From Chloroflexota bacterium (GTDB taxonomy: Bacteria > Chloroflexota > Anaerolineae > Promineifilales > Promineifilaceae), in contig JAJRYT010000114.1 of assembly GCA_024275635.1 (NCBI GenBank), forward strand, positions 28,292 through 92,291: DNA of 64,000 nt, given 5' to 3'. Numbering within the stretch: position 1 is the first letter of the stretch; each line of letters starts with the position of its first letter. The notes beneath the pieces were generated by a model. It saw nothing but the letters and a program-made list of their open reading frames with translations, was not told where the DNA came from and did no database searches. Of this stretch, positions 1-64,000 are shown one piece after another. The position numbers were made by a program, and so were the translations under genes.

Positions 1-192
1 GGGCGGCCAATGGAAGCGGCGGCGCTGCTGCGGTTGATTGCCGCCCACCCGGCGGCGGAGTCCCAATACCGGGATCGGGCTAGGGAGCGGTTGGCCCAAT
101 TGGGCCAACCGCCCCCCGCAGCGGCGGCGGATGAGGAACGGCCGCTCGACGAGGCGGTGCGCCGGCTGCTCTACCATCCGCATGGGGGATAA
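1..192 (+). CDS. 3' end of a CDS truncated by the window edge; product unknown
   Basis: Frame open from base 1 to the stop at 190-192. Ala/Arg/Pro-rich tail with no domain I recognise. Confidence 0.3.
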   Translation, partial: GRPMEAAALLRLIAAHPAAESQYRDRARERLAQLGQPPPAAAADEERPLDEAVRRLLYHPHGG

Positions 193-217
193 CGTGGGCG
201 GCGGCTCAGCATGAAGG

Positions 218-742
218 ATGAAGCCCGCTTACAGGATAAATCAAATGCAAATTTCGTTGATTGTGGCCATGGACAGGAACCGGGTGATTGGGCGGAACGG
301 CCGTCTCCCCTGGCATTTCCCCGACGACATGAAATGGTTCCGTCGGCAGACAATGGGCAAACCGGTCATCATGGGGCGCAAGACGTATGAGAGCATCCCG
401 GCGCGGTTTCGGCCTCTGCCGGGGCGGCATAATATTGTCGTTACCCGCAACCGGCTGTATCAGGCTGAAGGCGCGGCTGTTGTTCATACTGCGGCTGATG
501 CGTTGGCCGCCGCCGGGGAGGCGCCGGAACTGATGGTGATTGGCGGCGTACAACTGTATGCCCGGCTGCTGCCCCAGGCTGACCGGCTCTACCTGACGCT
601 GATTGATGCCGAGTTTATCGGCGATGCATATTTCCCCGAAATTGACCCGGCCGAATGGCAAGAAATCTCGCGGCAACGGCATGAAGTAGACGGCCGTCAC
701 GCCTACCGCTTTAGCTGGGTTATTTTAACACGCGTCGTTTGA
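218..742 (+). CDS. folA: dihydrofolate reductase
   Basis: ISLIVAMDRNRVIGRNGRLPWHFPDDMKWFRRQTMGKPVIMGRKTYESIP is the canonical DHFR N-terminal signature and the size is right. Alternative ATG at 245. Confidence 0.9.
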   Translation: MKPAYRINQMQISLIVAMDRNRVIGRNGRLPWHFPDDMKWFRRQTMGKPVIMGRKTYESIPARFRPLPGRHNIVVTRNRLYQAEGAAVVHTAADALAAAGEAPELMVIGGVQLYARLLPQADRLYLTLIDAEFIGDAYFPEIDPAEWQEISRQRHEVDGRHAYRFSWVILTRVV

Positions 743-751
743 CTCCCCTCT

Positions 752-1996
752 GTGACTGATAGACAATTCCCCACTAAATTTTCAGGGAAGAAATCTATGC
801 GCTTACATCGCCCACAATTGATTGGTTTGCTTGTCTTTTTGTTTGTGCCGCTGACCTGGCTGGCCTGGCAGTGGCAGCAGGGGGAGGAGGCGGCCCAGGC
901 GGCCGTTTTGCCTACCCTGACGCCGACTGCGCTGCCGGTCAAACTGGCAACTGTTACGCCCATCCCACCGACGAACACGGCCGTTCCCACCCCAACACTC
1001 ACTGCCGCCACAACGCCCACAGCCACGCCCACTAACACCCCTATCCCCACGGCCATGTCCTCGCCGACGTTGACGCCGACGAATACGGCCGTTCCCGTTA
1101 GCCGCACCTGCCCCGACCCAGCCCCGCTCAAACCGTTTTATGACCGCTACACCATCGCCAACGACCGCTGGCCCGCGCCCGACCCGGCATTGGCCGCGCC
1201 TCATTTCTGGCTGGCTAAGCCGTTTCCCGGCGGCGGGCGGTTCCTGATCAACCAAAATTTTCCCTATGGCTACGATTTGAACGGCCGTCTTCTCCTGCAT
1301 AACGCGGTAGATTCGGCCGAGCCGCTGGGAACGCCGGTGCTGGCGGTGGGGGACGGCACGGTTATCGTGGCTCAGGATGACCTGAATGAGTGGTACGGCT
1401 GGCGCTGTGATTGGTACGGCCATCTGGTTGTGATTGAGCTGGATCAAATGTATAGGGGACGGCCGTTATACGCCCTCTACGGTCACGTCCTCAACATCAC
1501 GGTTGAAGCGGGCCAGCGCGTGCAGACCGGCGACCAGGTGGCCGAAGTTGGCTTTGGCGGCGCGGCCACTGCGCCCCATTTGCACTTTGAACTTCGCGCA
1601 GACACAAACGAATTTAACGCAACCTTAAATCCCATGTTGTGGATTAGTCCCGGCGCGACGCGGGGTGTGATTGTCGGCCGTCTGCTCGACCCGGAGGGGC
1701 GGCCCTGGCGCGGCGTCGGGTTGAGCCTGATTGGGTTAAGCGGAGAAACCAGCGGCGGCAATACCTGGACATATCTGGATGACCCGATGCACCTTATCAA
1801 CCCTGACCCCGGCTATGCCGAAAATTTCGTTTTTGCCGATGTGAAGCCGGGCGCGTATGAAGTGTACACTAAAGTGCAGGGTGTCGAGTATCGCGCTTCC
1901 GTACAAGTTCCCGCGGGCAGCGTCGGTGTTGTGGAAATCGTCACGGAGACGTACAAAACCCCTACCCCGGCGCCACCGCCCACGCCGGCGGGATGA
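752..1996 (+). CDS. M23 family metallopeptidase (LytM/murein endopeptidase-like) with membrane anchor and Thr/Pro-rich linker
   Basis: HNAVDSAEPLGTPVLAVGDGTVIVA...YGHLVVIELD...LYGHV...GDQVAEVG...APHLHFELR matches M23 motifs. N-terminal hydrophobic anchor. Possible start at 797. Confidence 0.85.
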   Translation: MTDRQFPTKFSGKKSMRLHRPQLIGLLVFLFVPLTWLAWQWQQGEEAAQAAVLPTLTPTALPVKLATVTPIPPTNTAVPTPTLTAATTPTATPTNTPIPTAMSSPTLTPTNTAVPVSRTCPDPAPLKPFYDRYTIANDRWPAPDPALAAPHFWLAKPFPGGGRFLINQNFPYGYDLNGRLLLHNAVDSAEPLGTPVLAVGDGTVIVAQDDLNEWYGWRCDWYGHLVVIELDQMYRGRPLYALYGHVLNITVEAGQRVQTGDQVAEVGFGGAATAPHLHFELRADTNEFNATLNPMLWISPGATRGVIVGRLLDPEGRPWRGVGLSLIGLSGETSGGNTWTYLDDPMHLINPDPGYAENFVFADVKPGAYEVYTKVQGVEYRASVQVPAGSVGVVEIVTETYKTPTPAPPPTPAG

Positions 1997-2007
1997 TGTA
2001 TCTCGGA

Positions 2008-5419: not shown

Positions 5420-5614
5420 ATTGTCGGGGATTATAGCGGGGAAACGGCCGTTTTGCACGCATTTTTTGTTGGGTTTTATGGGGGTTGGGCGGGGGAACGG
5501 TCTCTAAATAAATATTTAAGCAGGGTTCAATTATGCTGAAATCATCTTTACAATTAACCTGTTTTAACAGGTTTCCCTCTTTAGTGAGCGTCCATTAAAT
5601 AAGTTCCCTGTTTT

Positions 5615-5672
5615 GAGACTGGAGACTGGTTAACTGGAGACTGGCAGTCTCCAATCTCCAATCCCTAGTCTC
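5615..5672. repeat. heptamer hairpin, GGAGACT/AGTCTCC family
   Basis: gagactggagactgg...ggagactggcagtctccaatctccaatccctagtctc. Tandem 7-mers on both arms. Confidence 0.8.
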
Positions 5673-5826
5673 AGGAAGTAATTTTTAGATGCTCACTTAG
5701 CGGGGCATTTCAATGCCCCGTGATGGCGGCCATATTGTAAAGATTAATTGTTCAGTTTTGAACCATGCCCTTTTTTCGCTCTTTGCTGTTTTGTACCTTT
5801 GATTAGGGTTCCTGACACTTTTTCAC

Positions 5827-6999
5827 TCAAGCCGCATTCCCAGCGACTTTTACCACACTGGAACTGGCTAATCTTTCCCCTATAATTGTATTGGACAATT
5901 CATCGTGGAACAATTTCTTGGTCTTTTTGAATCTGAAATATTGTACGATCAAGAGAACGCCAACACTAAGGCCGTACAAGTAAAGCACAACGGTCCTCAT
6001 GATATTTCTCCACAAGGCGCGCAGATAAGAAATACGTTCCCCTTCTCTATCGGTTATCTGCAACTTCAATATTCGTTTGCCAATAGTGCCTTGCCATTGC
6101 GACGATTCCATAATTGGAAAGACCACGACATATATGATGATCGTAAGAATTGCTCCTACCTCATCAGCAATGGCAAATGCTATTCCCGTTAAAATGAATA
6201 AAAAGAGCTGGTCAATAAGCATAGCCCCGGCTCGTTTCAGCGTGACCGTTTTGTAGTACTTTTCTCGCCAATCAACAGCTATCGGCGACGATTCTCTTGC
6301 TTTACTCGTAGTCTGACTGTTGGATGTTCCTGAAGCAGCCTTAAAATCAGGGGTGTTTTCCACTTTCGTAGCAGACGATAGTTGCAATGCTTCATCTACT
6401 GGAGAAGCTGCCCTTGGTTGACTCGTAGTCTGACTCTGAGATGTTTCTAAAGTAGCCTTAAGCTCAGGAACGCTATCCATTTCCACAGCAAGCGATGGCT
6501 GCACTGCTTTACTTTGAGCCAACTCGTTAATCGAATCGTAAATATCGCTTGCCACAGCCATCGCCGCATCATCAGGGCTGTTCCAGAATTGTTTATTATT
6601 CAGTGGTTGTAGATTCTTTGGCAGCACATCCAGGCTGTTAAAAGGGGTTGCCGTCCACATGCAGTTACGAACGAGTATCGGAATCATGACAGTCTCATGA
6701 TTATTGTGTTTTTCAATCACCGTTTGATTTCGGCGGTAAATTCCATCGTCATCAATGAAATCAACACTAATAAGAGCGAGTACGATATCTGCATCAAATA
6801 ATCGTTGTTTATATTCTGCTCTATCCGCTCCACTGGGGACATTGAAATCACTATTCACCTGAATGGGTATCGCCGAATTTCTGATGATGGGCGAAAGATG
6901 CTTTTCGATCCCTTCGCAGATATCCTGGTCTTCCAGCGCTGCCAATAGATACACTTCAATGTTTCTATGCTGAGAATCGCGAGTTTCTGTAATCGTCAT
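5827..6999 (-). CDS. TIR-like domain protein fused to a C-terminal RDD-family membrane domain
   Basis: The N-terminal domain (IVLALISVDFIDDD...MIPILVRNCMW...LDVLPKNLQPL) is paralogous to the TIR of the next gene. Duplicated S/T/Q-rich linker. C-terminus has RDD-like motifs (RAGAMLIDQLF, GKRILKLQI, HDELSNT) and TM helices. AAGGAG SD. Confidence 0.7.
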   Translation of the reverse strand: MTITETRDSQHRNIEVYLLAALEDQDICEGIEKHLSPIIRNSAIPIQVNSDFNVPSGADRAEYKQRLFDADIVLALISVDFIDDDGIYRRNQTVIEKHNNHETVMIPILVRNCMWTATPFNSLDVLPKNLQPLNNKQFWNSPDDAAMAVASDIYDSINELAQSKAVQPSLAVEMDSVPELKATLETSQSQTTSQPRAASPVDEALQLSSATKVENTPDFKAASGTSNSQTTSKARESSPIAVDWREKYYKTVTLKRAGAMLIDQLFLFILTGIAFAIADEVGAILTIIIYVVVFPIMESSQWQGTIGKRILKLQITDREGERISYLRALWRNIMRTVVLYLYGLSVGVLLIVQYFRFKKTKKLFHDELSNTIIGERLASSSVVKVAGNAA

Positions 7000-7043
7000 A
7001 AAAGTAACTCCTTCATTTTTTTGATTGCCTTAGGGCACGTTCG

Positions 7044-7073
7044 TTTATAACTTTGGCGTTTGAAAAATTGTAA
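7044..7073 (-). promoter_or_regulatory. possible sigma70-type promoter for the TIR-RDD gene
   Basis: On the minus strand, TTACAA - 18 nt - TATAAA, about 45 nt upstream of the ATG at 6999. Confidence 0.3.
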
Positions 7074-7125
7074 CCAGGTAATTGGTAACTGGTAATTACC
7101 TGGTTACTCAATTACCAATTACCAG
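7071..7125. repeat. heptamer hairpin, GGTAATT/AATTACC family
   Basis: ccaggtaattggtaactggtaattacctgg palindrome followed by ttactcaattaccaattaccag. Confidence 0.8.
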
Positions 7126-7216
7126 CAAACTGCAAAGTTAATTTTGAACGAACCTTTAGAATAGCAGGCCCTCTTATTTTTGATTCGACCGGCTAGTACC
7201 TTAACTTTATGATTTT

Positions 7217-7268
7217 GTAGGGTGAATTTGCAATTCGCCCAGGCTGGCGATTTACAAAATCGCCCTAC
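7217..7268. repeat. imperfect ~23-bp-arm hairpin between the two TIR genes
   Basis: gtagggtgaatttgcaattcgcc ... ggcgatttacaaaatcgccctac. Enclosed by an outer inverted repeat ctagtacc(t)taac / gttac(g)gtactag. Confidence 0.65.
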
Positions 7269-7296
7269 ATTTTTAGAAGGTTACGGTACTAGATCG

Positions 7297-8055
7297 CTAG
7301 GACAAGACGTGGGGGTAATCACTTGTCAATAATTGGAAAAGGCGCGGCGTCATATTTCGCCGCTCAACGTGGGCAATAAGCGCCATGATTTTGGTCGTCT
7401 TAGCTTCACTACCCTCTAAATTCTCATAATCAATATCTAGATCAAAAGCAACTTGTTTCACCTCATTTACACTCAGCCTATCACCGAGTCGCTTGCGTAA
7501 TTCATTTTGGGGCATGACCGGAACCTCAAATAGTTTCTCTTTAATTGGCGCGATATGAGAAGTATTTGCCTTGTTGGGTACGGCCGTTGACTTTTTCAAG
7601 ATATGATCAACGAGATCCTCAACACCTTTGGCAATTTCGGTAAATGCATCGTCGCGATTGGGGTATTCTGTGACTGGCGTCGCATTGCGGGGAAGCGCCT
7701 GCAGATTGGTGTACGGTTGGCTGCTCCAATCACACTTACGGAGTATGATCGGCACCACGTAAGCCGTTCCCTCTTCATGGCGTTTCATAGCTGACTTGAG
7801 TTCGTTATCCCAGATAGAATCTGAGGCGATGAAGTCAACACTTATCAAGAGTAAGATGATATTTGCCTTGTTTAATTCAGACATAATGGTCTGATCCCGC
7901 TCCTGCCCACCCAGAAGCTCCCTGTCGTTCCACGTCTGGATTTTTGAGGAACGCTTTAATACCTTTAAGTGCTTATCCAATTCCTTTTTCAAATCTTCGT
8001 CTTCATGGACATAAGAAATAAAGACGGAAACGCCGGATTGGGAACCTTCTATCAT
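7297..8055 (-). CDS. TIR domain protein with C-terminal effector-associated (Death-like adaptor) domain
   Basis: VFISYVHEDEDLKKEL...ILLLISVDFIASDSIWDNEL...VVPIILRKCDW...LQALP is a TIR_2-type domain. The C-terminal ~70 aa (VKQVAFDLDIDYENLEGS...IMALIAHVERRNM...LFQLL) resembles EAD-type adaptor modules. Confidence 0.75.
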   Translation of the reverse strand: MIEGSQSGVSVFISYVHEDEDLKKELDKHLKVLKRSSKIQTWNDRELLGGQERDQTIMSELNKANIILLLISVDFIASDSIWDNELKSAMKRHEEGTAYVVPIILRKCDWSSQPYTNLQALPRNATPVTEYPNRDDAFTEIAKGVEDLVDHILKKSTAVPNKANTSHIAPIKEKLFEVPVMPQNELRKRLGDRLSVNEVKQVAFDLDIDYENLEGSEAKTTKIMALIAHVERRNMTPRLFQLLTSDYPHVLS

Positions 8056-9618: not shown

Positions 9619-11031
9619 TTACGGCGCGTCTTCGTGCCAGGGATACTTTTCGGCCAATGATTGGTAAAGGGTGATAGCTGTCTCTGTGCCTCCCAATCGT
9701 TCCATCAACGCCGCCGCCCACCAGGCGGCGAAGGGGGCGTCCGGGCCGTCGGGGAATTGGGCGGTGTAATCGAGGTAAAGGGTGACGGCCGTTTCCGCTT
9801 GCCCGGCGCGGGCCATCATTTTAGCCCGTTCCAGCAGCGCGCCCGCCGGCTCGATGGCCGCGTAAGCGTCCAACTGCGCCTGCGCCGCCGCCAAATCCCC
9901 CAGCGCCTCATACGACCAGGCCAGGTAAAGGTAGGCGTCGGCGCGGAAGTCGTCCGGGTTGGCGGCCAGATAGCGTTGGAAGGCGGCGATGGCCGGGTCG
10001 TAGGCGTTGGCGTAATAATCCACCAGCCCGCGCTGGAATTCGTCCACCGGCACGCCGGCCTCGACCAGGGCGACGAGGGCCAGGTAGCTTTCGTAGGCGC
10101 GGGGGTAGTCGTTGACGCCGGTCAGGTAGCGCTGGTAGGCGGCGCTGGCATCGCCGGCATTGAGGACGGCCGTTCCCGCCAGGTAAGTCATCTGCCCGCG
10201 CGTGTTTTCGGTGATGGCCAGATCGTGAATGGCGTCATACTGGGCGGCGGCGGCGGCGTAACTCTCGCCTGCCAGGTACAAATCGGCCAATGTTTGCCGG
10301 ATGGCGATGTGGGTCAGCCGGTGGGCGGGCGCGTCCAGGGCGGCTTCGTAGGCAGCGACGGCCAATTCTTGGCCGTTGGCCGTTTCCCGTTCCCCCAGCG
10401 CCAGATAATCGGCGGCAATACGCGGCTGGACATAGGCGGCCATTTCCGGGTTGGCGGCCAGATAGGCTTGATAAGCGGCGATGGCGTTCTGGTAATCGGC
10501 CGTGCCGTCGAGGGACAAGGCCAGTAGGAATCGGGTTTCGGGGGGTGGGTTATTGGTAATTAGTAATTGGGTAAATGTGTCGGCGGCGGGGGCGAAACGG
10601 CCGTCTTGCAGGTAACTTTTGCCTAAATTGAGCAGCGATTCGGTTTGTTGGGCGTCGGTTAGCGCGCCGGGTTGGCTGAGGCTGGATTCAAATTGGGAAA
10701 CGGCCGTTTCCCAATCGCCTTCCGCCAGAGCCTGCTCGCCCAGGGCGATGCGGGTGGCGGGCAGCGGCGTGGCCGTCGGCGTGGGGCTGGGCGTGAAGGT
10801 GGGCGACGGGCCGATAGTGGGCGGCGGCGGGTCGGTGGGCAGGCCAGGGATGAGGGTAGGCGTGGGCTGGGCAGCGGCGGTTGGCTCTTGCGCCAGCGGG
10901 GTGGGCGCGGACGGCGCGTCGGCGCAGGCGGCCAGCAGCCAGAGCAGGAGGAGAATGATGAATGGTGAATGATGAATGATGAATGATGAATACGGCCGTT
11001 CACCATTCACCATTCGCAATTCATCATTCAT
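9619..11031 (-). CDS. TPR-repeat lipoprotein-like protein (probable N-terminal part of a TPR-SLT transglycosylase)
   Basis: Repeated ...A.A...Y..YL...P TPR-like units. LLLLWLLAAC lipobox-like signal. The first ~25 codons are encoded by a heptamer hairpin, so the start is uncertain. Confidence 0.75.
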   Translation of the reverse strand: MNDELRMVNGERPYSSFIIHHSPFIILLLLWLLAACADAPSAPTPLAQEPTAAAQPTPTLIPGLPTDPPPPTIGPSPTFTPSPTPTATPLPATRIALGEQALAEGDWETAVSQFESSLSQPGALTDAQQTESLLNLGKSYLQDGRFAPAADTFTQLLITNNPPPETRFLLALSLDGTADYQNAIAAYQAYLAANPEMAAYVQPRIAADYLALGERETANGQELAVAAYEAALDAPAHRLTHIAIRQTLADLYLAGESYAAAAAQYDAIHDLAITENTRGQMTYLAGTAVLNAGDASAAYQRYLTGVNDYPRAYESYLALVALVEAGVPVDEFQRGLVDYYANAYDPAIAAFQRYLAANPDDFRADAYLYLAWSYEALGDLAAAQAQLDAYAAIEPAGALLERAKMMARAGQAETAVTLYLDYTAQFPDGPDAPFAAWWAAALMERLGGTETAITLYQSLAEKYPWHEDAP

Positions 11032-11032
11032 T
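10953..11032. repeat. heptamer hairpin, GAATGAT/ATTCACC family, with ACGGCCGT in the loop
   Basis: gaatgatgaatggtgaatgatgaatgatgaatgatgaat-acggccgt-tcaccattcaccattcgcaattcatcattcatt. Confidence 0.85.
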
Positions 11033-11869
11033 ACTTCCTCTTCGTCCGGTTAGCAGTTCCAGCCCCAGGTACAGGGGAGCTAACTGTATCAGTCCCAGCC
11101 AGACGAGGATGATGGCAGCGCCTGTTTTAATCGTGCTGATCTGAGTCTGGAGGCCGGCGCGGGATTGGCGGATGGCGTCGCTGAGTTCGGTAACGAGGCG
11201 AATGTAGTCGTCTATTAAAGCAGGAAGTTCGGCGATACGGCCGTTAATGTTCTCCAAATCCCCGGCAATTGTTTCCATGTCCGCGCTGATGGCAGCCAGA
11301 TTTTCGTCGGCAACAGCCATTTCCGCTCCCAGATTTTCCAATCGTTCCGGCAGGCCGTCCATGCTGCTGCCCAGGCTGATGACGGTTTCGTCGAAGGGGA
11401 CGGAGGGATCGTAGTTGATGCCTAAATCGTACTGGATTTTGAAGCCGAGGATTTCTTGGTCAATGCGGAATTTGCTCAGGGTGACGAGGGTGCTGTCAAT
11501 AACGGCGGCGGCTTCGGCCATATTGGGGATGGCGGCCTGCATGGTGCGGATGCTGGCGGGGACGTCTTCGCTGGTAACGGCCGTCACTTCATCCAGTAAC
11601 GGCCGTGTCTCCTCCATCGTCGTCCCCAAATCGGCCGCCAATGCGCTGACCGAATCCAGACCGTTGTTGGTCTCTTCCACCGTTCTTTTGGCCAGCGCCA
11701 GCGAATCTTGCACCGTATCCAGGCTTTCGACCGTCAGGGCCAGTGTGTTGTCCAAACTAGCGCCGACGGCGTTAATTACGCTGGGCGCTTTTCGGGTTCC
11801 GGCAATGCTCAAGGCCACACCGATTAAGCTGATGAGGATGATAACTGTGCCAATCAATTTGCGAATCAT
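11024..11869 (-). CDS. hypothetical membrane protein with long coiled-coil-like ectodomain
   Basis: N- and C-terminal hydrophobic helices. Central Ala/Leu/Asp/Glu-rich helical region. No domain recognised. Confidence 0.6.
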   Translation of the reverse strand: MIRKLIGTVIILISLIGVALSIAGTRKAPSVINAVGASLDNTLALTVESLDTVQDSLALAKRTVEETNNGLDSVSALAADLGTTMEETRPLLDEVTAVTSEDVPASIRTMQAAIPNMAEAAAVIDSTLVTLSKFRIDQEILGFKIQYDLGINYDPSVPFDETVISLGSSMDGLPERLENLGAEMAVADENLAAISADMETIAGDLENINGRIAELPALIDDYIRLVTELSDAIRQSRAGLQTQISTIKTGAAIILVWLGLIQLAPLYLGLELLTGRRGSNE

Positions 11870-14977: not shown

Positions 14978-16522
14978 TCATTCACCGGGCCGGATGTTGG
15001 TTTGAATGCGGCTGGTTAAATAGGGCAGGCGGTGGAACCAGAGCGGCCGGATTTCAATTTCGGGCGGCGCTTGCAAGGGTAACTGCCGGTTAAGATAGGC
15101 GACGGCCGTTTCCGTTTCTTGTCCGGCGATGGCTTTCAAGTCGGCGGCTAACTCCATCTCAATCGCCATCATTCCTTCGCCAGTCATCAGGAAAGTCACA
15201 TTACCAGCCTCGTCGGCGCTGACGACCTGGCTTTCGCCAAACCGGATGCTGTCGGGAACCAGGCTGAAGCCGGGCGTTATCTGTCGGGCCAGGGCTTCGT
15301 ATACCAGACCAGAGGCGGCGGTGGTATCAACGGCCGTCCCTTGCAGCGCCGCTTCCATTTCCACGCCCAGCCGTTCGGTCTGCTCACCTACCGCGTGCGA
15401 AAATCGTTCGCTGAATATCTCCACCACGCGCAGCGACTCCCGCGCTAAAAATTCCCGTTCCGTGATCTGGGTTTCCATTTCTGACAGGGCCACCGCTTGC
15501 AAAAATTGCAGCGCTTGTGAGCGCAGACGGGCGACATCAGCTTCAGAAACGGCCGTGACCGCTTGCACCGCCCCGCCTACCATTGGGGCCGGGTTACGGA
15601 CTTTGACTCGTTCGGCCAGCGGTTCGGACAAAATCGTGATGGTTTCTCTGGTCACATTCCCCTGCGGGCCGGGTTCCAGGGCGATAACGTCTGTTTCGGC
15701 CGTGCCGCCGGCGACGCCCACAACGATCACTTCTTCTACAGTCTGGAAGGCGATGTCGCTGCCGTCGTTGGCGCGGATGATGGTTCCGGCGGGGATGGCG
15801 ACCGTTTCGCTGGTGACGTTGGTGAAGACGATGCGCCCGCGGCCCGGGGCGGTGGGCACATCAATCACGCCTGTCGTTTCAATCTCGGTTTTCCAGGTTT
15901 GGGTGATGGTAAGCAGGCGGGCGGGGATGGTGTTTTGCGCGTAGTCAATATCGGAGAAGGTGGGGACGGCCGTAATTTGCTGAACGGCCGTCAGCGGTTG
16001 TACAATTGGTTCCAGCGTAATCGTGGCGCGGGGAACCAGATACAAAAAGGAGATAACGGCCAGCGCGCCAGCCACAAAAAAGAGCAAAATCGCCGCATAC
16101 CGGATGAGCCATTGGCGCGGCGTGATAACCGGTGCGGGCAGCAGTTCCCCGTCATCGTCGGCCTCAGTCTGGTGCGGTTTGCCGTCGTCCAGCGGTTCGC
16201 CGTAGGTGGGCAGGCCCAGCCGTGCCTGCCGCCGCCTGCCGCGCCACCAGCCGCGGCGGCTCGTTTCCGCTTCGGCGACGCTGGCGAAGGCAGGCAGCCC
16301 CACCGCCCGCGCCTGTCGTGATAATTGGCGATTGGTTGTGACTAGGCCGACTTCAACCCGGTTCCTGTCCGCGTAACGGCGCAGGCGGATGAGAGAGAGG
16401 GGGGGGAGAACGGCCGTTTCTTCCTCCGGCAGGACAAACAACACCCGCTTTTCATCCGACCAATCCAGCCGATCACACACGGAGATGATGTCGTCGTCGG
16501 GGGTGAGGGAGATTACTTTCAT
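14978..16522 (-). CDS. hypothetical membrane protein (central region weakly baseplate J/gp47-like)
   Basis: 514-aa ORF with one TM helix. GRIVFTNVTSETVAIPAGTIIRA...ALEPGPQGNV recalls baseplate-J-like proteins. Weak recognition. Confidence 0.6.
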   Translation of the reverse strand: MKVISLTPDDDIISVCDRLDWSDEKRVLFVLPEEETAVLPPLSLIRLRRYADRNRVEVGLVTTNRQLSRQARAVGLPAFASVAEAETSRRGWWRGRRRQARLGLPTYGEPLDDGKPHQTEADDDGELLPAPVITPRQWLIRYAAILLFFVAGALAVISFLYLVPRATITLEPIVQPLTAVQQITAVPTFSDIDYAQNTIPARLLTITQTWKTEIETTGVIDVPTAPGRGRIVFTNVTSETVAIPAGTIIRANDGSDIAFQTVEEVIVVGVAGGTAETDVIALEPGPQGNVTRETITILSEPLAERVKVRNPAPMVGGAVQAVTAVSEADVARLRSQALQFLQAVALSEMETQITEREFLARESLRVVEIFSERFSHAVGEQTERLGVEMEAALQGTAVDTTAASGLVYEALARQITPGFSLVPDSIRFGESQVVSADEAGNVTFLMTGEGMMAIEMELAADLKAIAGQETETAVAYLNRQLPLQAPPEIEIRPLWFHRLPYLTSRIQTNIRPGE

Positions 16523-17163
16523 TCTTGGTTCAAAAGCAGCGTAATAGCGAGAAGGTTAACCGCATCATAATTTTTTAACCGTTTTCGCAGCCAATACCCG
16601 TGCTCTACACCGACTAAAACTAACAATCGCTTTCCAGGATACTTTTGTACGGTTTGCAATACTACGTCGAGGAAATGCTGATTCCACCCATCCCAACCTT
16701 GTTGTTCCTTTGCGCCGTAAATTTCATTTTGGAGGGCATGTTTGGCTGCAAACAACGAATCGGTGAGGGGTGAATTTACCGCGACTGGGGAATCCCAAGT
16801 TTTCAAAAGTAGTTCAAGCAACGCGCTAACATAATTCCCAAAGGCTTCTTCCTTTTCGACATCAATTTCTTGAGCTTCTGATTCGCGTATCAGTTTAACA
16901 AGTTCAGAGAATTTTGGCTCGGCGGGTTCGAGAGGGACAACCACAGAATTATGTTTTTTCAGCAAGGGGAAAACGCTCTTTTGATACTCTTGCTTGATTT
17001 TTTGCTCTTTTTGTTGCGTCAGATCGCTGGAGGTGAGTTCCACAGCCAATACGTGCGGTTTAATGCCTTCGATGATTTCCGACAGTTTGGTGAAGCTATA
17101 ATTGGCCACCGAATCATGAAATTGGTGCAGCGTTGCCAGTACGATTACTTCAGTTTTAATCAT
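16519..17163 (-). CDS. hypothetical protein (possibly TraB/Tiki/DUF5694-like)
   Basis: AT-richer ORF. VIVLATLHQFH...LAVEL...VLVGVEHGYW is reminiscent of TraB/GumN-type erythromycin-esterase-like folds. ATGA overlaps on both sides. Confidence 0.5.
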   Translation of the reverse strand: MIKTEVIVLATLHQFHDSVANYSFTKLSEIIEGIKPHVLAVELTSSDLTQQKEQKIKQEYQKSVFPLLKKHNSVVVPLEPAEPKFSELVKLIRESEAQEIDVEKEEAFGNYVSALLELLLKTWDSPVAVNSPLTDSLFAAKHALQNEIYGAKEQQGWDGWNQHFLDVVLQTVQKYPGKRLLVLVGVEHGYWLRKRLKNYDAVNLLAITLLLNQE

Positions 17164-17606
17164 TTTAATGGGATGCGTATGGTGGACTCAAAGTCGTCGC
17201 AATTGATTTGTAAACTGTCTAGGGTGGGGTTGACACAAGTGTGTTGGTAAACCACTGCACCCGCACGATTTCCGCCGGAAGGGTCGCTGTCATATCGGAA
17301 GTAGAAAATATCGCCGTTATGGGTTGCTGCCCAGCCGTCGGCAACGTGGGAATCTATCCCCTGCTGTTGGATTTGCAGGAAGAATCCCTGGCCCGTCTGC
17401 TGCGCTTTCGAGGCGCAGGCAAACCCTGGCCCTGGATCATCTCCGACGCGGGTGATGCCGCAATCAACGGCCGTTTTCTCTGCATGATCGGCTAAAAATT
17501 TATGGAACACGGCCGTGTCATCCGCGCGTCCCGTCATAAACAGCAGCAAGATGACCAGCATACTTGCCAGTAATATTGTTCCCTGTTTCCAGCCCCATTT
17601 TTTCAT
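17160..17606 (-). CDS. hypothetical secreted protein
   Basis: Start chosen at MKKWGWKQGTILLASMLVILLLF (signal-like). The ORF-track N-terminal extension is Arg-rich and overlaps the upstream gene. Confidence 0.5.
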   Translation of the reverse strand: MKKWGWKQGTILLASMLVILLLFMTGRADDTAVFHKFLADHAEKTAVDCGITRVGDDPGPGFACASKAQQTGQGFFLQIQQQGIDSHVADGWAATHNGDIFYFRYDSDPSGGNRAGAVVYQHTCVNPTLDSLQINCDDFESTIRIPLK

Positions 17607-17614
17607 ATCTGCTT

Positions 17615-18118
17615 TCAGATCGGGTTGGAGCCGCCAGCCTGAAAAATCTCTTCCAGATAGCGGCGGGCTTTGTTGACTTCGTAATTGTAGAAAACCATGC
17701 TGATTCCGTAAAAGAGTATCAGGAAACTGAAAAAGAGGGTAAACGAACCTGCGCCGCCGTTGCCTGTTTCCGGCGAAACGAGGAAACCAAAGGATATGAA
17801 TGCCCAAAAGGGGATGAACAGGGCCATGAAGCCAATAATGAAATAGCTCAAGCGCGTCGTGACCTCAATGCGGCTTGTGTTCAGGTCGTTGTGAATTTGA
17901 CCGGTGATGATAGGCAGGAAGTTGTTGCGGTAATGAATGATGCGATTGATGTTGAATTTGCCGTTTTCTACTGTCCCCGCAAAAAATTTATGATCCCGTG
18001 AAAACCCCCAACGGAACAACTGGCGCGGTTCCACCTCTGCCGCCAGTCGTTGTTCCACCTCATGCGCTTGCAAATATGCCTTGATGGTAAACCGGGTGTA
18101 GGGAATGAGTAGAATCAT
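17615..18118 (-). CDS. hypothetical membrane protein
   Basis: 167-aa ORF with two predicted TM helices in the C-terminal half. No domain recognised. Confidence 0.5.
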   Translation of the reverse strand: MILLIPYTRFTIKAYLQAHEVEQRLAAEVEPRQLFRWGFSRDHKFFAGTVENGKFNINRIIHYRNNFLPIITGQIHNDLNTSRIEVTTRLSYFIIGFMALFIPFWAFISFGFLVSPETGNGGAGSFTLFFSFLILFYGISMVFYNYEVNKARRYLEEIFQAGGSNPI

Positions 18119-18128
18119 GTTTTTGGAT

Positions 18129-18182
18129 AGATTGGGGATTGGAGACTAATTCGCCCAGTCTCCAATCCCCAGTCTCCAGTCT

Positions 18183-18185
<3 letters not shown>
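18129..18185. repeat. heptamer hairpin, GGAGACT family, immediately 3' of alaS
   Basis: ggggattggagact / agtctccaatcccc, a perfect 14-bp stem, then agtctccagtctc. Confidence 0.85.
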
Positions 18186-20876
<2,691 letters not shown>

Positions 20877-24086: not shown

Positions 24087-24120
24087 GGGGAACGGCCGTA
24101 CACTACAACGGCCGTTCCCC
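24087..24120. terminator. hairpin formed by two ACGGCCGT palindromes
   Basis: ggggaacggccgt / acggccgttcccc, a 13-bp stem with an 8-nt loop, 165 nt after the stop at 23922. No T-run. Confidence 0.4.
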
Positions 24121-26512: not shown

Positions 26513-26549
26513 AAAACGGCCGTTCCCCCCACCGGGAAACGGCCGTTTT
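26513..26549. terminator. bidirectional terminator-like hairpin made of two ACGGCCGT palindromes
   Basis: aaaacggccgttcc / ggaaacggccgtttt between convergent genes. T-run after the stem on the plus strand and A-run before it. Confidence 0.55.
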
Positions 26550-28329: not shown

Positions 28330-28902
28330 TTATGCATGCTGCGCGAGCGACTCAGCCAATCGTTCACGTAAAAATAGCCGCGCCCGGTGCAAGCGTACTT
28401 TAGCCGCGCTGATGGAAATGCCGGTGATGTCGGCCGTTTCCTGCGTAGATAACCCCTCAATTTCGCGCAAGATGAAAACCGCCTTGTGTTTCTCCGGCAG
28501 CGCCGTGATGGCCTTGTCCAGTTCCGCCTTGATTTCGGCCTCCGTCAACAGCCGCTCCGGCACATCCCGCCAGTCGGCCAGGATGACCGGCGCCGGTATG
28601 TCATCGTCATCCGCGGCAAAATCCAACATCATGGTCGGACGACGTTGCCGCAGGCGATCCATGGCCGCGTTATAGGCCACACGATACAGCCAGGTGCTAA
28701 TTTTGGCGCGCCCTTCAAACCGATCCAGCCGCTCAAATAAACGCAAGAAGCTCTCCTGCACCACGCCTTCAGCTTCCATGTCATCCTCAAGCAAACCGGC
28801 GGCCAGCCGGTACACTTTGTCCGAATAGCTTTCAAATAAGAAGGTGAATGCATCAGGATCGCGGCGGCGTAGGGTTGTAACGAGTTCTTGTTCAGAATAC
28901 AT
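28330..28902 (-). CDS. ECF-type RNA polymerase sigma factor
   Basis: Sigma-70 region 2 (FLFESYSDKVYRLA...VQESFLRLF..) and region 4 (ALPEKHKAVFILREIEGLSTQETADITGISISAAKVRLHRAR). Confidence 0.9.
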   Translation of the reverse strand: MYSEQELVTTLRRRDPDAFTFLFESYSDKVYRLAAGLLEDDMEAEGVVQESFLRLFERLDRFEGRAKISTWLYRVAYNAAMDRLRQRRPTMMLDFAADDDDIPAPVILADWRDVPERLLTEAEIKAELDKAITALPEKHKAVFILREIEGLSTQETADITGISISAAKVRLHRARLFLRERLAESLAQHA

Positions 28903-29203
28903 ATGCTTTTTCCTTTTGACGATGGTTGGGTCGTTTGGTTACATCGATTATCTTATGCAACGGCCGTTCCTGCTAATTCTATCCCCGTCTTCCTCAGCGC
29001 AAGATTATATACCAGATACTGCCCGCCACGACAACCGCCCATAAAGATAACGCGGACCAATTCGGGCGGCCATTCATCCAATCCGTCCGGCTTTGCGTAT
29101 GTATTGACAGATGGAGCAAAAAGATCGGATCTGTCAGCCCCATTCACCGGTGAAGTTTTAGATTTAATCCGTTTTAGCAAGTTCAAGCACAAGGAGACAA
29201 TAA

Positions 29204-29833
29204 ATGTTCAAGCAGAAAAGACAAACAGGCATCCTCATTTTACTGGTCATACTCATTGTTGCCGCAGTCACAGTCAGTGTGAACGCAGATTCCAAAGAAG
29301 TGGACATAGAACTGTTTGCCCCGCGCAGCGGCGATGTAGCCGGCGTAGGCAGCCGCGGCTTTTTAGTAGATTTGGCCGTCCGTTTTGAAGGCGACCTGGC
29401 CGCTACCGGCGCCGCTTTAGAACTGACCGGCCCGGCCGCCCACGCCAACACGCCGCCCCTTCCTGGCGATTTTGGCCCTGGCGCTGATCCCAGCTTCCCT
29501 GGCCTCATCGTTTTGCTATCATCCAGTAAAGTAGGCGCCGGCCCCGGCCAAAATTTGGCGAATTTGTTCAACATCGTGGCCGTCACCGACCGCAAGGATG
29601 ACGAAACGGAAATTTGGGCCGCCTGGATCATCGGCGCACCCAATCTGTTTGGTACAGTAGGCCAGATGGAAGAGTCGAAACTGCTGGTCGCCGTGGTGGA
29701 TGGCATGGCCCCCAGCGCTATCAGCGACATGGATGGCGATGGCGATTACGATAAGGATGACTTGGCGGCAATGGGGCTCACCATTCTCTCTGATGTGCGC
29801 GAGGTTGATTTTGTTGTGAACGGGTTTAATTAA
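29204..29833 (+). CDS. hypothetical secreted protein with C-terminal Asp-rich Ca-binding-like motif
   Basis: Signal-anchor ILILLVILIVAAVTVSVNA. C-terminal DMDGDGDYDKDDL. Sits between the two sigma modules. Confidence 0.6.
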   Translation: MFKQKRQTGILILLVILIVAAVTVSVNADSKEVDIELFAPRSGDVAGVGSRGFLVDLAVRFEGDLAATGAALELTGPAAHANTPPLPGDFGPGADPSFPGLIVLLSSSKVGAGPGQNLANLFNIVAVTDRKDDETEIWAAWIIGAPNLFGTVGQMEESKLLVAVVDGMAPSAISDMDGDGDYDKDDLAAMGLTILSDVREVDFVVNGFN

Positions 29834-29870
29834 GCGCAGAACCGGAGATTAATTAACGCGGTTGTGAATG

Positions 29871-29908
29871 GAGATTGAGAAATTAGCCAATGGCAATTTC
29901 TCAATCTT
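29871..29908. repeat. hairpin, GAGATTGAGAAATT family
   Basis: gagattgagaaatt / aatttctcaatct. Overlaps the ORF-track start of the next gene. Confidence 0.75.
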
Positions 29909-29922
29909 CAATTTATTTGTTG

Positions 29923-30576
29923 ATGACGCTTTCGCAAACAATTGGCGGCAACATCCCAACTCCTATAAAATTTCATGCTATTCGAGGCGATGAAAAGGAG
30001 TTGCAATCGGCGTTGGCTGTCACGGAGTTGGATGATTTTGCGCTCATACAACGAACGGCCCAAGGGGATGAGACCGCCCTGGGCGCATTGTATGATCGTT
30101 ACGGCCGTCTCGTTTTAAGCGTGGCTTATGGCGTGGTGCAAAATCGGGAAACGGCCGAAGAAGTGACGCTGGATATTTTCACCCGCGCCTGGGAAAAGGC
30201 ACACACGTATGACCCGCAGCAGGCAAAAGTAAGCACCTGGTTGACCCGCATGGCCCGCAACCGGGCCATTGACCGGCTGCGCCGGGAGAAGGTACGGCCG
30301 TTTCACCACAGTGTCCATTGGTCTGATGTAATCGCCGAACCGGTGACAGAAAGCAATCAGCCGGAAACGGCCGTTCATTTGAGCCTGGAACAACAGCGCG
30401 TGCGAGCAGCCGTCGCCAGCCTGCCGCCCGCGCAGCAAGAAGCGCTGGCCCTGGCCTATTTTCAAGGATACAGTCACAGCGAAATCGCCCAGGCGCTTGA
30501 CCAGCCGCTGGGCACAGTGAAGGGGCGCATTCGCGCCGGCATGCAAAAACTGCGGGCCTTGCTGGGAGATGGATAG
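29923..30576 (+). CDS. ECF-type RNA polymerase sigma factor (SigK-like)
   Basis: Region 2 (LYDRYGRLVLSVAYGVV...DIFTRAWEKA) and region 4 (LPPAQQEALALAYFQGYSHSEIAQALDQPLGTVKGRIR). The track start at 29890 lies inside a hairpin, so the ATG at 29923 is preferred. Confidence 0.85.
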   Translation: MTLSQTIGGNIPTPIKFHAIRGDEKELQSALAVTELDDFALIQRTAQGDETALGALYDRYGRLVLSVAYGVVQNRETAEEVTLDIFTRAWEKAHTYDPQQAKVSTWLTRMARNRAIDRLRREKVRPFHHSVHWSDVIAEPVTESNQPETAVHLSLEQQRVRAAVASLPPAQQEALALAYFQGYSHSEIAQALDQPLGTVKGRIRAGMQKLRALLGDG

Positions 30577-30685
30577 TAAGCATTCAATAGTTGATAGGCG
30601 CAATCTTGTGACGAAAGTAATGAAGAACCGTCCAATTAAATGGCGGCAGCGTATAATCAGTCAGAAATTCTTTTAGAGTAGCGCG

Positions 30686-59957: not shown

Positions 59958-59963
59958 GAAATC

Positions 59964-61300: not shown

Positions 61301-61398
61301 AATTGTCAATTGTGAATTGTCAATTGACAATTGTTAATTCATTGTTTGTCGCCAGGTCTCATTCACAATTTATCGTTCACAATTCATCATTTACAATT
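61301..61398. repeat. heptamer hairpin, CAATTGT/ATTCACA family
   Basis: aattgtcaattgtgaattgtcaattgacaattgttaattcattg...attcacaatttatcgttcacaattcatcatttacaatt. Confidence 0.8.
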
Positions 61399-61999: not shown

Positions 62000-62015
62000 A
62001 ATTTCTCCTTTTTCG

Positions 62016-62108
62016 ATTGGGAAACTGGAGATTGAAGAGTGGAGACTAGAGACTGGAGACTGCCTGTCTCCAAATCTCCAATCTCTAGCCTTCAGTCTCT
62101 AATCTCTC
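62016..62108. repeat. heptamer hairpin, GGAGACT/TAGAGAC family
   Basis: attgggaaactggagattgaagagtggagactagagactggagactgcctgtctccaaatctccaatctctagccttcagtctctaatctc. Confidence 0.85.
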
Positions 62109-63899
62109 TCATGCAGCCATCACCGGGATTTCTTTGCCGGGTTCGATTGCCTGCCGGGCGCAGACGTCGTAGCAGAGGCCGCAGCCGACACATTGAACCG
62201 GGTCAATCCACGCTTTGGGGCGCTGTGTTTTTTCGTCTAATTCGTCGCTCTTGAAGATGGCCGGGCAGCCGATGCGGAAGCAGAGGGTGCAGCCGTTGCA
62301 GTCGTCGTTATGGACGATGTAGGGTTCGCGGTTGTGGCTGGTCTCGAAGACGCAGATGGTGCGGGCGACGATGACGGCCGGTTCGCCCGATTTTTGCGCT
62401 TCTTTGATGGTGTTCTGCATCTCTTTCAGTTCGCGGGCTTCTAGCTCGTACACGTGTTTGACGCCCAGGGCGCGGGCGACTGCGGCGATGTCAATGCGGT
62501 GGCCGTGTTCGCCGCGCAGGGTTTCGCCGGAGCCGGGGTTGCCCTGGTGTCCGGTCATGCCAGTGGTGCGGTTGTCTACGACGATGACGACGATGGGGGT
62601 GTTGTTGTAAACGGCCGTTGCCAGCGCCGATAACCCCGAATGGAAAAAGGTGCTGTCCCCAATCACCGCCACATTCTCTTTTTCCAGCCCGGCGTGCCGC
62701 ATTCCCATGGCCACGCCGATGCTGGCCCCCATCGCGCCGATGGTATCGCTCGATTCCAGCGGCGGCAGGACGCCCAGGGCGTAACAGCCGATGTCGGAAT
62801 TGACCGTCACCTTCAGCCGACGCAGAGTCCAGAACACGTCCCGGTGGCCGCAGCCGGCGCAGAGGACAGGCGGGCGGATGGGCAGCGCGCCTACATCCGG
62901 CGTGTGACCGTTGCCGTTTTTAGCCAGAACGCCGGCTTCAACCGCCGCCGCCCGCACCCGTTCCGGCGTCAATTCGCCAATGGCCGGGAAGATGCTCTTA
63001 CCTTCCACAGCGATGCCCATTTGACGCACGTGCTCTTCGATGAACGGCTCCAGCTCTTCGATGATCAGCAGCCGGTCTACCTGGGCGGCGAAGTCGCGGA
63101 TTTTTTGTTCCGGCATGGGCCAGGCCATTCCTAATTTGAGGATGGAGGCGTTGGGGAAGATTTCGCGGGCGTACTGGAAGGCGGCGCCGGCGGAGATGAT
63201 GCCGATTTTCTTGTCGCCCCATTCGATGGTGTTGATGGCGCAGGTTTCGGCCCACTGGCGCAGTTTTGCAGTGCGTTCCTCGATGACGGGATGGCGGCGG
63301 CGGGCGTAGGCGGGGATCATGACGAATTTGGGCGGGTTTTTGATGTACGGCCGTTTCTCCTTCGTCTCCCGGTCTTCCAACGTGATCACCGACTTGGCGT
63401 GCGAGGTGCGCGTAGTGGTGCGGATCAGAACCGGCGTATCATGTTCTTCACTCAACGCCAACGCCAGGGCCACAAACTCCTTCGCCTCCTGACTGTCCGA
63501 CGGCTCCAGCATGGGCGCTTTGGCGAAGCGGGCGTAGTTTCGGTTGTCCTGCTCGTTTTGCGAGGAGTGCATACCGGGATCATCGGCGGTGATGATGACC
63601 AGCCCGGCGTTGACGCCAGTGTAGGAGGCGTAAAACAGCGCTTCGGAAGCGACGTTGAGGCCGACGTGTTTCATCACCGCCATCGTCCGCCGCCCGGCGT
63701 AGGCTGAGCCGATGGCCGTATCCAGCGCCACCTTCTCGTTCGCCGCCCACTCCGAATAAATATCGTCGTACAGGGCGACGTTCTGTAAAATCTCTGTGCT
63801 GGGCGTGCCCGGATAAGCCGTCGCTACCTCCACGCCCGCTTCCCAGGCTCCCCGCGCCAATGCTTCGTTGCCACTCATCAATGCTTTATCCATAGTCAA
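62109..63899 (-). CDS. iorA: indolepyruvate:ferredoxin oxidoreductase subunit alpha
   Basis: MSGNEALARGAWEAGV..A.AYPGTPSTEI, a TPP-binding region (GDSTFFHSG) and a C-terminal 2x[4Fe-4S] motif CNGCTLC...CP / CVGCGLCYDVC. Confidence 0.9.
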   Translation of the reverse strand: MTMDKALMSGNEALARGAWEAGVEVATAYPGTPSTEILQNVALYDDIYSEWAANEKVALDTAIGSAYAGRRTMAVMKHVGLNVASEALFYASYTGVNAGLVIITADDPGMHSSQNEQDNRNYARFAKAPMLEPSDSQEAKEFVALALALSEEHDTPVLIRTTTRTSHAKSVITLEDRETKEKRPYIKNPPKFVMIPAYARRRHPVIEERTAKLRQWAETCAINTIEWGDKKIGIISAGAAFQYAREIFPNASILKLGMAWPMPEQKIRDFAAQVDRLLIIEELEPFIEEHVRQMGIAVEGKSIFPAIGELTPERVRAAAVEAGVLAKNGNGHTPDVGALPIRPPVLCAGCGHRDVFWTLRRLKVTVNSDIGCYALGVLPPLESSDTIGAMGASIGVAMGMRHAGLEKENVAVIGDSTFFHSGLSALATAVYNNTPIVVIVVDNRTTGMTGHQGNPGSGETLRGEHGHRIDIAAVARALGVKHVYELEARELKEMQNTIKEAQKSGEPAVIVARTICVFETSHNREPYIVHNDDCNGCTLCFRIGCPAIFKSDELDEKTQRPKAWIDPVQCVGCGLCYDVCARQAIEPGKEIPVMAA

Positions 63900-63910
63900 C
63901 CTCCACGTAT

Positions 63911-63974
63911 GGGAGATTAGAGATTGGAGATTAAGTCTCCAATCTCTATCTCTAGTCTCTAGTCTCTAGTCTCT
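63911..63974. repeat. heptamer hairpin, GGAGATT/TAGTCTC family
   Basis: gggagattagagattggagattaagtctccaatctctatctctagtctctagtctctagtctc. Confidence 0.8.
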
Positions 63975-64000
63975 TATGATTCACCCGCCCTAAATACGCT

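Follow-up and report, generated by a model that had tools for sequence, protein, structure and literature searches.

The 64,000-nucleotide stretch of contig JAJRYT010000114.1 analysed here (the window, always meaning this whole stretch) comes from a filamentous Chloroflexota bacterium (Anaerolineae; Ardenticatenaceae/Promineifilaceae group) and encodes dihydrofolate reductase (DHFR), an M23 peptidase, SLT and TPR proteins, YceG, alanyl-tRNA synthetase (AlaRS), extracytoplasmic function (ECF) sigma and anti-sigma factors, RecQ and Tex, together with an isocitrate/isopropylmalate-type dehydrogenase, aconitase, HpaB, aldehyde dehydrogenase, AFOR and an indolepyruvate-type oxidoreductase. Running through these genes and the spacers between them is a palindromic 8-mer, ACGGCCGT, with 113 copies (1.77 per kb, one per 566 bp; Table 1), which agrees with an earlier note on this DNA that had put the tally at about 110, or one per ~0.6 kb. 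It is very probable that ACGGCCGT represents a DNA-level word system of the highly iterated palindrome (HIP) type, lineage-specific and written genome-wide by point substitution.

The abundance of the word was compared with chance expectation under several models. Markov models of orders 0–4 predict 1.56, 1.63, 3.42, 6.01 and 13.8 copies in the window, and dinucleotide-preserving shuffles of the window (n = 100) gave a mean of 1.82 (standard deviation 1.45, maximum 6). The ‘handful’ that the earlier note expected from composition corresponds to 1.6–6 copies under orders 0–3, and within the window the excess survives the higher Markov orders (3–4) that it had asked for. Orders 5 and 6 predict 43 and 87 copies, nearing the observed count only because the 6- and 7-mer sub-words come mostly from ACGGCCGT itself. 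The observed/expected ratio (O/E) under order 2 is 33; ACGGCCGT is the most frequent of all 8-mers in the window, where the second palindromic 8-mer has 10 copies. Pooled ACGGCCGT-type DNA (434 kb from 22 loci) contains 858 copies (1.98 per kb) against 18–32 expected, an O/E of 47 under order 2. The cyanobacterial HIP1 word GCGATCGC has no copy in the window and the host belongs to the Chloroflexota, so that ACGGCCGT is an analogue of HIP1 and not HIP1 itself.

The window is 86% coding and 87% of the copies lie in open reading frames (ORFs), so that coding and non-coding densities are equal. The 98 copies in ORFs are read in all three phases, as Thr-Ala-Val (TAV; 48), xGRx (30) and xRPx (20), in line with the earlier statement that they sit in unrelated coding sequences in every frame, and the four peptides given then as examples are all present (GRNGRLPW in DHFR, ENGRFPN in Tex, WETAVSQF in the TPR protein and RETAVAH in RecQ). 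When synonymous codons were shuffled within each gene 12.1 ± 3.4 copies were obtained (maximum 21) against the 98 observed, an approximately eightfold excess. In the curated, non-overlapping genes of the window the word encodes 48 of 48 TAV, 28 of 34 [NHDY]GR and 20 of 32 RP[FLSYCW] peptides; the corresponding shares are 95%, 79% and 65% in other ACGGCCGT-bearing genomes, 0% in genomes with other words and 0–6% in the outgroup. ACGGCCGT takes essentially every synonymously allowed position and many tolerated non-synonymous ones. The equal densities, the use of three phases, the codon-shuffle excess and the complete word-encoding of TAV bear out the proposal of a DNA-level drive in place of selection on protein, and codon or peptide selection is excluded by the codon shuffle, the phase use, the intergenic density and the sister-genome controls.

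Relatives were found with the window AlaRS as query in a species-level genome collection, which gave 80 loci (best 88% identical), all of them from Chloroflexota metagenome-assembled genomes labelled Anaerolineae, Ardenticatenaceae or Promineifilaceae; word counts were taken over loci of 3–23 kb, mostly about 20 kb. At these AlaRS loci more than 20 related genomes have ACGGCCGT at 1.2–3.4 per kb, and they split into three 10-mer sub-dialects, AACGGCCGTT, TACGGCCGTA and CACGGCCGTG. Three more Ardenticatenaceae contigs, found by a separate route, have 2.2–2.6 per kb. Other relatives use another word: three genomes (L027, L030 and L047, one of which is ‘Ca. Trichofilum aggregatum’) have no ACGGCCGT and carry GCGGCCGC, mostly extended to CGCGGCCGCG, at 1.6–2.0 per kb, one (L031) has TCGGCCGA (TTCGGCCGAA) at 1.6 per kb and two (L041 and L044) have TGCCGGCA. 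The counts of the alternative words against shuffles are 42 vs 1.5, 36 vs 0.6 and 46 vs 0.9, and the other-word genomes, at 65–67% AlaRS identity to the window, are as near to it as many ACGGCCGT genomes. L006 and L021 have a loose CGGCCG/RCGGCCGY word at 4.6–5.5 per kb with mixed outer bases (approximately RCGGCCGY in L006, 63/104); this 6-mer or degenerate word could be a stage between dialects. High-GC Promineifilum genomes show no such word at their AlaRS loci. The earlier note had considered that relatives with like codon usage might share the count, and relatives of similar composition in fact have 0 copies. Outgroup Anaerolineae (L052–L078, about 50% AlaRS identity) avoid CGGCCG (O/E 0–0.8, often 0–5 copies per 22 kb, at 60% GC), as does the TGCCGGCA-type genome L041 (O/E 0.1), and the GCGGCCGC-type genomes avoid GCCGGC (O/E 0–0.4). 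The avoidance suggests EagI/NaeI-like restriction pressure surrounding a clade in whose genomes this core rose to hyper-abundance. CGGCCG is the EagI site, GCGGCCGC the NotI site and GGCC the HaeIII site, and the connection with methyltransferases and restriction made in the earlier note is plausible on that account. Restriction-target avoidance does not apply to the ACGGCCGT clade itself, where the site is over-represented, the opposite of avoidance.

Every dialect leaves its own phase-0 peptide imprint. TAV occurs at 2.75–3.6 per 1000 amino acids in ACGGCCGT genomes and at 0.2–0.6 elsewhere (6–12×), and the frequencies of TAI, SAV and TAL do not differ between ACGGCCGT genomes and the others; the ORF sets of the relatives are crude and include some shadow ORFs, and the curated window set agrees with them. 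The AlaRS genes show the same peptide 37 times in 18 word-bearing genes and nine times in 55 others, and the amino-acid replacement forced within AlaRS alone is modest (15% vs 10% at conserved codons), so that the TAV excess across the proteome is the clearer measure. In GCGGCCGC genomes the peptide AAA is 90% word-encoded, in the TCGGCCGA genome SA[DE] is enriched sixfold (19 of 22 word-encoded) and in the TGCCGGCA genome CR[HQ] is enriched about 10-fold.

The bases next to the word are biased as well. A stands at −1 in 56 of the 113 copies, T at +1 in 67, and G at −4/−3 and C at +3/+4 in 62–72, which gives a weak symmetric consensus of roughly GG-N-A(ACGGCCGT)T-N-CC, and the bias (G-rich 5′, C-rich 3′) is the same with genes on either strand. 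The description of the word as usually AACGGCCGTT and often GAAACGGCCGTTTC was overstated, the 10-mer accounting for 34 copies in the window (30%) and the 14-mer for three, but the flank preferences behind it are real. Flank complementarity within single sites is at the level of the permuted null (mean stem extension 0.57 vs 0.54 ± 0.07), so that the extended palindrome reflects two half-sites biased independently and selection for a hairpin or other structure is ruled out. Flanks and word together make up a symmetric recognition footprint of ~16 bp, within which the 8-mer acts as a unit with both outer bases fixed together: the 1398 occurrences of CGGCCG in ACGGCCGT-type DNA divide into full, half and no word as 904/280/214, where independence predicts 780/529/90. 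The proportion of CGGCCG lying inside the word is 93% in GCGGCCGC genomes and 84% in the TCGGCCGA genome. One-off variants with the change inside CGGCCG number 109 against 148 expected, despite the flux from 858 perfect sites, and at 0.68× the density of control genomes they are at or below background, whereas variants at the outer bases (positions 1 and 8) are enriched 2- to 5-fold.

Nearest-neighbour spacing is approximately exponential (coefficient of variation (CV) 0.93 over 762 intervals), with very short gaps slightly few; regular or periodic spacing was not seen at this scale, HIP1-type long-range periodicity being something that needs whole chromosomes. Nor do word-poor islands mark foreign DNA in the window, where there are three gaps of more than 2 kb against about three under Poisson. 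One word-free stretch (5444–7580) adjoins a gene (7297–8055) for a defence/signalling-type protein that combines a TIR domain with effector-associated domain 7 (EAD7) at its C-terminus, and the ACGGCCGT at 7580 falls within this gene.

The origin of individual sites was followed in a gap-free codon alignment of 73 AlaRS genes. The earlier note had suggested looking in orthologues for substitutions in conserved codons, and this is where the sites in AlaRS are found (Table 1). They arise by substitution, synonymous or replacing, and not by insertion, as no indels occur at ACGGCCGT sites among the 73 genes. The changes that make the site in EKRPY include transversions, and at the 18409 site an intermediate, GCGGCCGT (GAAV), occurs in weak-word relatives. 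ACGGCCGT is found at the same alignment columns in genomes only 65–70% identical, and other-word genomes use different columns. Where the amino acids are identical, in pairs of less than 80% AlaRS identity, the word persists in 85% of the comparisons and other 8-mers in 23%, and unconditional retention in the same pairs is 46% against 9.5%; the pairs are phylogenetically non-independent but the effect is large nonetheless. Between the window and its closest relatives 43 ACGGCCGT sites are common and 48 differ (background 8-mer identity 0.14). A non-word orthologue is usually 2–5 bases away from the word, which argues that one-off intermediates are short-lived. Taken over these alignments ACGGCCGT is kept at the DNA level over deep divergence. 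A REP/MITE-like mobile repeat (repetitive extragenic palindrome or miniature inverted-repeat transposable element) was rejected as an explanation, with 87% of copies in ORFs and no indels, conserved flanks or flank covariation.

Table 1. Positions of ACGGCCGT copies and associated features (window coordinates unless a locus is named).
Feature	Position	Strand	Remarks
ACGGCCGT copies, 113	1..64000	both (.)	Whole window; 98 in ORFs, 15 intergenic
ACGGCCGT in the dihydrofolate reductase gene	297..304	+	Peptide GRNGRLPW
Imperfect hairpin with GAATGAT-type heptamer repeats	10960..11035	.	−31 kcal/mol; ACGGCCGT (10992–10999) at apex
Alanyl-tRNA synthetase gene	18183..20876	-	Six ACGGCCGT copies (18409, 19167, 19354, 19438, 20016, 20693)
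ACGGCCGT with Val-to-Thr replacement	18409..18416	-	GVAVLA in outgroup, GTAVLA here
ACGGCCGT with replacement to Gly	19167..19174	-	DxERR/DxARR elsewhere, DNGRR here
ACGGCCGT with replacement	19354..19361	-	VTAATP in word-less genomes, xTAVTP here
ACGGCCGT by synonymous choice alone	20016..20023	-	Invariant DHGRAA, CAC-GGC-CGT; word-less genomes use Arg CGC/CGG
ACGGCCGT in conserved EKRPY	20693..20700	-	AAA-CGG-CCG-TAC; AAG-CGC-CCC-TAT in word-less genomes
Intergenic ACGGCCGT pair (24092, 24108), 16 bp apart	24092..24115	.	Stem includes GGGGA/TCCCC flanks
Intergenic ACGGCCGT pair (26516, 26539), 23 bp apart	26516..26546	.	Stem; between convergent genes
PF01555 two-gene cassette	L033:12809-14781; L204:10001-11973; L201:10001-11952

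The explanation that we favour as a whole, with a probability of about 0.45, is that of a HIP-type word maintained by a conversion bias acting on each site autonomously. Random spacing (CV 0.93) and saturated opportunities argue for an advantage per site and not for a need of about one site per kb. As to the nature of the bias we suggest tentatively that it lies in mismatch or heteroduplex repair guided by a palindrome-reading, probably methylation-linked enzyme. In such a scheme a sequence-specific reader of the palindrome would mark the word-bearing strand, most plausibly by methylation, and candidates for this role would include an EagI/NotI-like methyltransferase and a nicking enzyme acting as its partner; the EagI (CGGCCG) and NotI (GCGGCCGC) specificities show that palindrome readers of such a kind exist. 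A mismatch or heteroduplex over a word or near-word, arising by replication error, recombination or gene conversion between chromosome copies, would be repaired toward the word. Existing words would thereby be shielded from decay and one-off variants would be short-lived, new words would spread until halted by protein constraint, and a change in the outer-base specificity of the reader would switch the dialect. That the system is a second, independent origin of HIP-type word writing, in a phylum unrelated to cyanobacteria and brought about by a fast-evolving palindrome-reading enzyme system with specificity switches, is an idea to which we would give slightly less than an even chance.

Several observations weigh against a repair-driven origin of the word. 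No DNA methyltransferase, restriction enzyme or Vsr/MutH-like nuclease is encoded in the 64-kb window, and when 1.3 Mb of related loci and the viral loci were scanned for methylase motifs a single genuine DNA methylase emerged, a member of PF01555 (174 bits). We know of no characterised repair system able to convert a site at each of its eight positions. Very-short-patch repair in its classical form fixes only T:G at methylated C, and the site-creating substitutions include transversions, which are outside its range; the C-to-T one-off ATGGCCGT is not specifically depleted. Very-short-patch repair is not supported as the sole mechanism on these grounds, transition one-offs not being specifically depleted and transversions creating sites. 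The intergenic density is not above that of coding DNA although protein constraint is lacking there, and the positional conservation fits purifying selection on a function equally well.

The PF01555 methylase (N6/N4) and an overlapping 317-aa partner without a Pfam hit lie between AlaRS and a Baseplate_J-like gene (L033 and L204–L206), so that in some Ardenticatenaceae the insertion immediately follows AlaRS. Homologues of the cassette, 75–80% identical, are found in Roseiflexus, Chloroflexus, Caldilinea and Ardenticatenaceae and also in a gammaproteobacterium (Caldichromatium); the pair has a restriction-modification-like appearance and seems to have been transferred very widely. As the determinant of the word this methylase was rejected, because homologues are carried by Roseiflexus/Caldilinea contigs without a hyper-abundant palindrome and the syntenic slot of the window is empty of it. 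The window (14978–18183) has the Baseplate_J-like gene (514 aa) in the conserved housekeeping context AlaRS ... Baseplate_J-like – RuvX-like – YceG, which is syntenic in L204–L206, and the slot occupied in relatives by the methylase cassette is filled by two uncharacterised ORFs of ~215 aa (16519–17163 and 17160–17807).

The word is also found on DNA that is probably mobile. A scan of IMG/VR for two ACGGCCGT within 30 bp gave 120 loci, 28 of them with at least one word per kb, and in four (L096, L149, L081 and L092; 6.6–15 kb) the density is 3–4 per kb, at or above that of the host, although it should be noted that these contigs, which are classified as viral, were ascertained by their own word pairs. 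The word-rich loci encode ParA, FtsK/SpoIIIE, an SLT transglycosylase, a DnaC-like loader and an N6-methylase fragment, and no capsid, portal or terminase hits were obtained in the fetched parts of the contigs; the contigs probably belong to conjugative or integrative elements of the same hosts. Mobile DNA with the word at host density or higher argues against ACGGCCGT being a restriction target in these cells.

The principal competitor of site-autonomous conversion is a transformation or recombination signal, comparable to the DNA uptake sequences (DUS) and uptake signal sequences (USS) or to Chi, by which word-bearing DNA, perhaps when methylated, would be better taken up, protected from degradation or recombined, words would build up through uptake or recombination drive and the dialects would act as barriers between lineages; we regard this as rather unlikely. 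It accounts for the dialects and the enrichment on mobile elements, and less well for the palindromy and the ~100% occupancy. Like USS and DUS the word is present at ~1–2 per kb, within genes in every frame as well as in spacers, and at some amino-acid cost, some intergenic copies form terminator-like stems, and the mobile-element-like IMG/VR contigs have 3–4 words per kb. Its dialects differ among sister lineages, and DUS dialects occur in Neisseriaceae. However, known uptake sequences and Chi sites are non-palindromic, and an uptake advantage should saturate at one site per fragment whereas here the word occupies ~100% of the synonymous TAV opportunities. Neither close inverted pairs nor inner one-offs show enrichment, although a balance of mutation and drive would predict it for the one-offs; there are no competence genes in the 64-kb window, and the IMG/VR contigs, chosen by their word pairs, are without viral hallmark genes. 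The precedent on the side of such a signal is HIP1, methylated sites of which raise natural transformation up to 100-fold and for which an uptake-plus-Chi-like role has been proposed (10.1101/2024.09.10.611283; 10.64898/2026.06.24.733823).

Purifying selection on a site that serves the organism, either a methylation mark that guides mismatch repair to the new strand, as proposed by Elhai for HIP1, or a site bound by a protein that organises the nucleoid or chromosome, seems to us improbable. The strong positional conservation speaks for it, as does the symmetric ~16-bp footprint with independent half-site preferences, which is typical of a dimeric DNA-binding protein; the density is also near the ~1 per kb put forward by Elhai 2015 (PMC4390886), and Xu et al. 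2018 (PMC5861425) inferred that HIP1 is under selection. Such a function would be satisfied by a spacing of ~1 kb, yet every synonymous opportunity is filled and the spacing is random (CV 0.93), not regular; and 85–100% occupancy at ~10^4 sites is hard to square with what would presumably be a tiny benefit per site. Under Elhai's G-methyl-C ratchet one would expect the outer bases to be G..C and 7-mer intermediates to be abundant, whereas the outer bases here are A..T, T..A or G..C by lineage and half-words are at about half of the independence expectation. Virtually no weight is given to the idea that the word results from composition, codon usage or a recurring protein motif, or that it is a small REP/MITE-like element with many insertions. 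The genome is GC-rich (57%), the word is built of common codons (ACG, GCC, CGG, CCG, GGC and CGT) and a few copies lie within hairpins, but composition models (Markov orders 0–4 and dinucleotide shuffles) fall 8- to 70-fold short and the codon shuffle eightfold short. A by-product is equally hard to reconcile with the use of three phases, both strands and intergenic DNA, with relatives of similar GC that have 0 copies and other words, with sites aligning gap-free within conserved codons, and with flank complementarity at 0.57 against a null of 0.54.

HIP1 was reportedly described in cyanobacteria by Gupta in 1993 and by Robinson in 1995/97. The earlier note had called the present word the same kind of signal with another sequence, and the two match in abundance, use of frames, substitution, conservation, strict core and variant words. 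Like HIP1 and its variant HIPs, ACGGCCGT is a palindromic octamer (~0.3–2.7 per kb, tens-fold over expectation; PMC4390886; PMC5861425) that occurs in every frame of genes as well as in non-coding DNA, spreads by substitution with no indels and is conserved beyond codon and amino-acid conservation. In both the inner 6-mer is strict, with deviations at positions 1 and 8 and palindromic extensions in some genomes, relatives have replacement words or have lost the word, and the core is a classic restriction/methylation site. The differences are that the host is one of the Chloroflexota (Anaerolineae) and the core is CGGCCG or GCCGGC, not CGATCG/GATC; that several co-equal dialects exist at one phylogenetic depth, HIP1 being one dominant phylum-wide word; and that the outgroup actively avoids the core. 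HIP1 has a quasi-periodic distribution (PMC5861425), and none was seen here at the scale examined. An orphan methyltransferase acting on the inner sub-site is a defining correlate of HIP1 and the window has none. Elhai's model for HIP1 combines a methylase core with a ratchet of G-methyl-C-directed repair (PMC4390886) and has its logic in common with the repair scheme favoured above. Its particular rule does not hold in this clade and cannot be general: most lineages have A..T or T..A as their outer bases, and there are fewer half-words than independence predicts.

Among other systems, DUS of Neisseria and USS of Pasteurellaceae resemble ACGGCCGT in being short words at ~1 per kb in genes, with an amino-acid cost, lineage dialects, build-up by molecular drive and not transposition, and occasional inverted pairs as terminators. 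They differ from the perfect palindrome described here in being non-palindromic 9–12-mers that leave synonymous opportunities unsaturated, and in that competence and uptake specificity have been demonstrated for them. Vsr/Dcm (CCWGG) of enterobacteria is the sole known experimentally grounded precedent for repair-driven word excess, a methyltransferase-linked biased repair that turns near-cognate into cognate sites, but its effect is well under twofold and limited to T:G at methylated C, compared with a 30- to 50-fold excess, eight fixed positions and transversions in the present case. Chi (RecBCD/AddAB) is likewise a lineage-specific 5–8-mer with core-genome excess, independent of frame and serving as a ‘self’ mark in recombination; it is asymmetric and strongly strand-oriented, with a few-fold excess and about one site per 5 kb. 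A Chi-like role has been proposed for HIP1 (10.1101/2024.09.10.611283). HIPs have been treated as a cyanobacterial feature (PMC4390886; PMC5861425; bioRxiv 10.64898/2026.06.24.733823), and a non-exhaustive literature search found no prior report of ACGGCCGT as a genomic element or of iterated palindromes in Chloroflexota; both the phylum and the word family are new for HIP-type palindromes.

The function and spread of HIP1 have been open for about 30 years and studied in cyanobacteria only, and the Chloroflexota system offers a natural experiment. Mutually equidistant genomes show at least five word states (ACGGCCGT with its three 10-mer sub-dialects, GCGGCCGC, TCGGCCGA, TGCCGGCA, loose CGGCCG and none), and a gene that sets the word should co-vary with the word state. 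Models are already constrained by the absence of a universal G-methyl-C rule for the outer bases, by the 8-mer being the unit and by opportunities that are saturated and not spaced. If the proposed enzyme system is correct, specificity switches (outer bases A..T, G..C and T..A, and the permuted GCCGGC core) would rewrite ~10^4 sites in each genome, together with thousands of codons, HIPs would be a general class of bacterial sequence drive, the dialects could act as barriers that keep sister lineages from recombining, and the proteome imprint, such as the 6- to 12-fold excess of Thr-Ala-Val, would be a measurable cost. In practical terms ACGGCCGT is a strong lineage signature that could aid binning or the assignment of mobile elements to hosts; it biases the proteome and predicts dense EagI/NotI-type sites, and by analogy with HIP1 the methylated word may be needed for efficient transformation of these wastewater-relevant filamentous bacteria.

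The structures and neighbouring genes of the window add some minor observations. The copy that the earlier note had placed in a hairpin loop does form the apex of a long imperfect hairpin, situated where the TPR-protein gene meets the upstream ORF, both on the minus strand. Its further remark that copies pair up as terminator stems holds to the extent that two intergenic pairs can form stems, the second being followed by TTTCATCTT and having a terminator-like look, but close pairs are not enriched in the window (7 vs 5.8 under Poisson). At 31857–35811 a tandem pair of DUF488 genes, with one member of the ‘active DUF488-N3a’ type, is found just upstream of the gene for the 969-aa RecQ, a protein with a dual-OB (DuOB) domain at its N-terminus and HTH_40 at its C-terminus, and this group may be a DNA-processing or repair module. 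The cluster at 28330–31408 contains ECF sigma genes at 28330–28902 (−) and 29890–30576 (+) and an anti-sigma gene (zf-HC2 plus RskA_C) at 30686–31408, and these sigma and anti-sigma genes contain copies of ACGGCCGT like any other gene.

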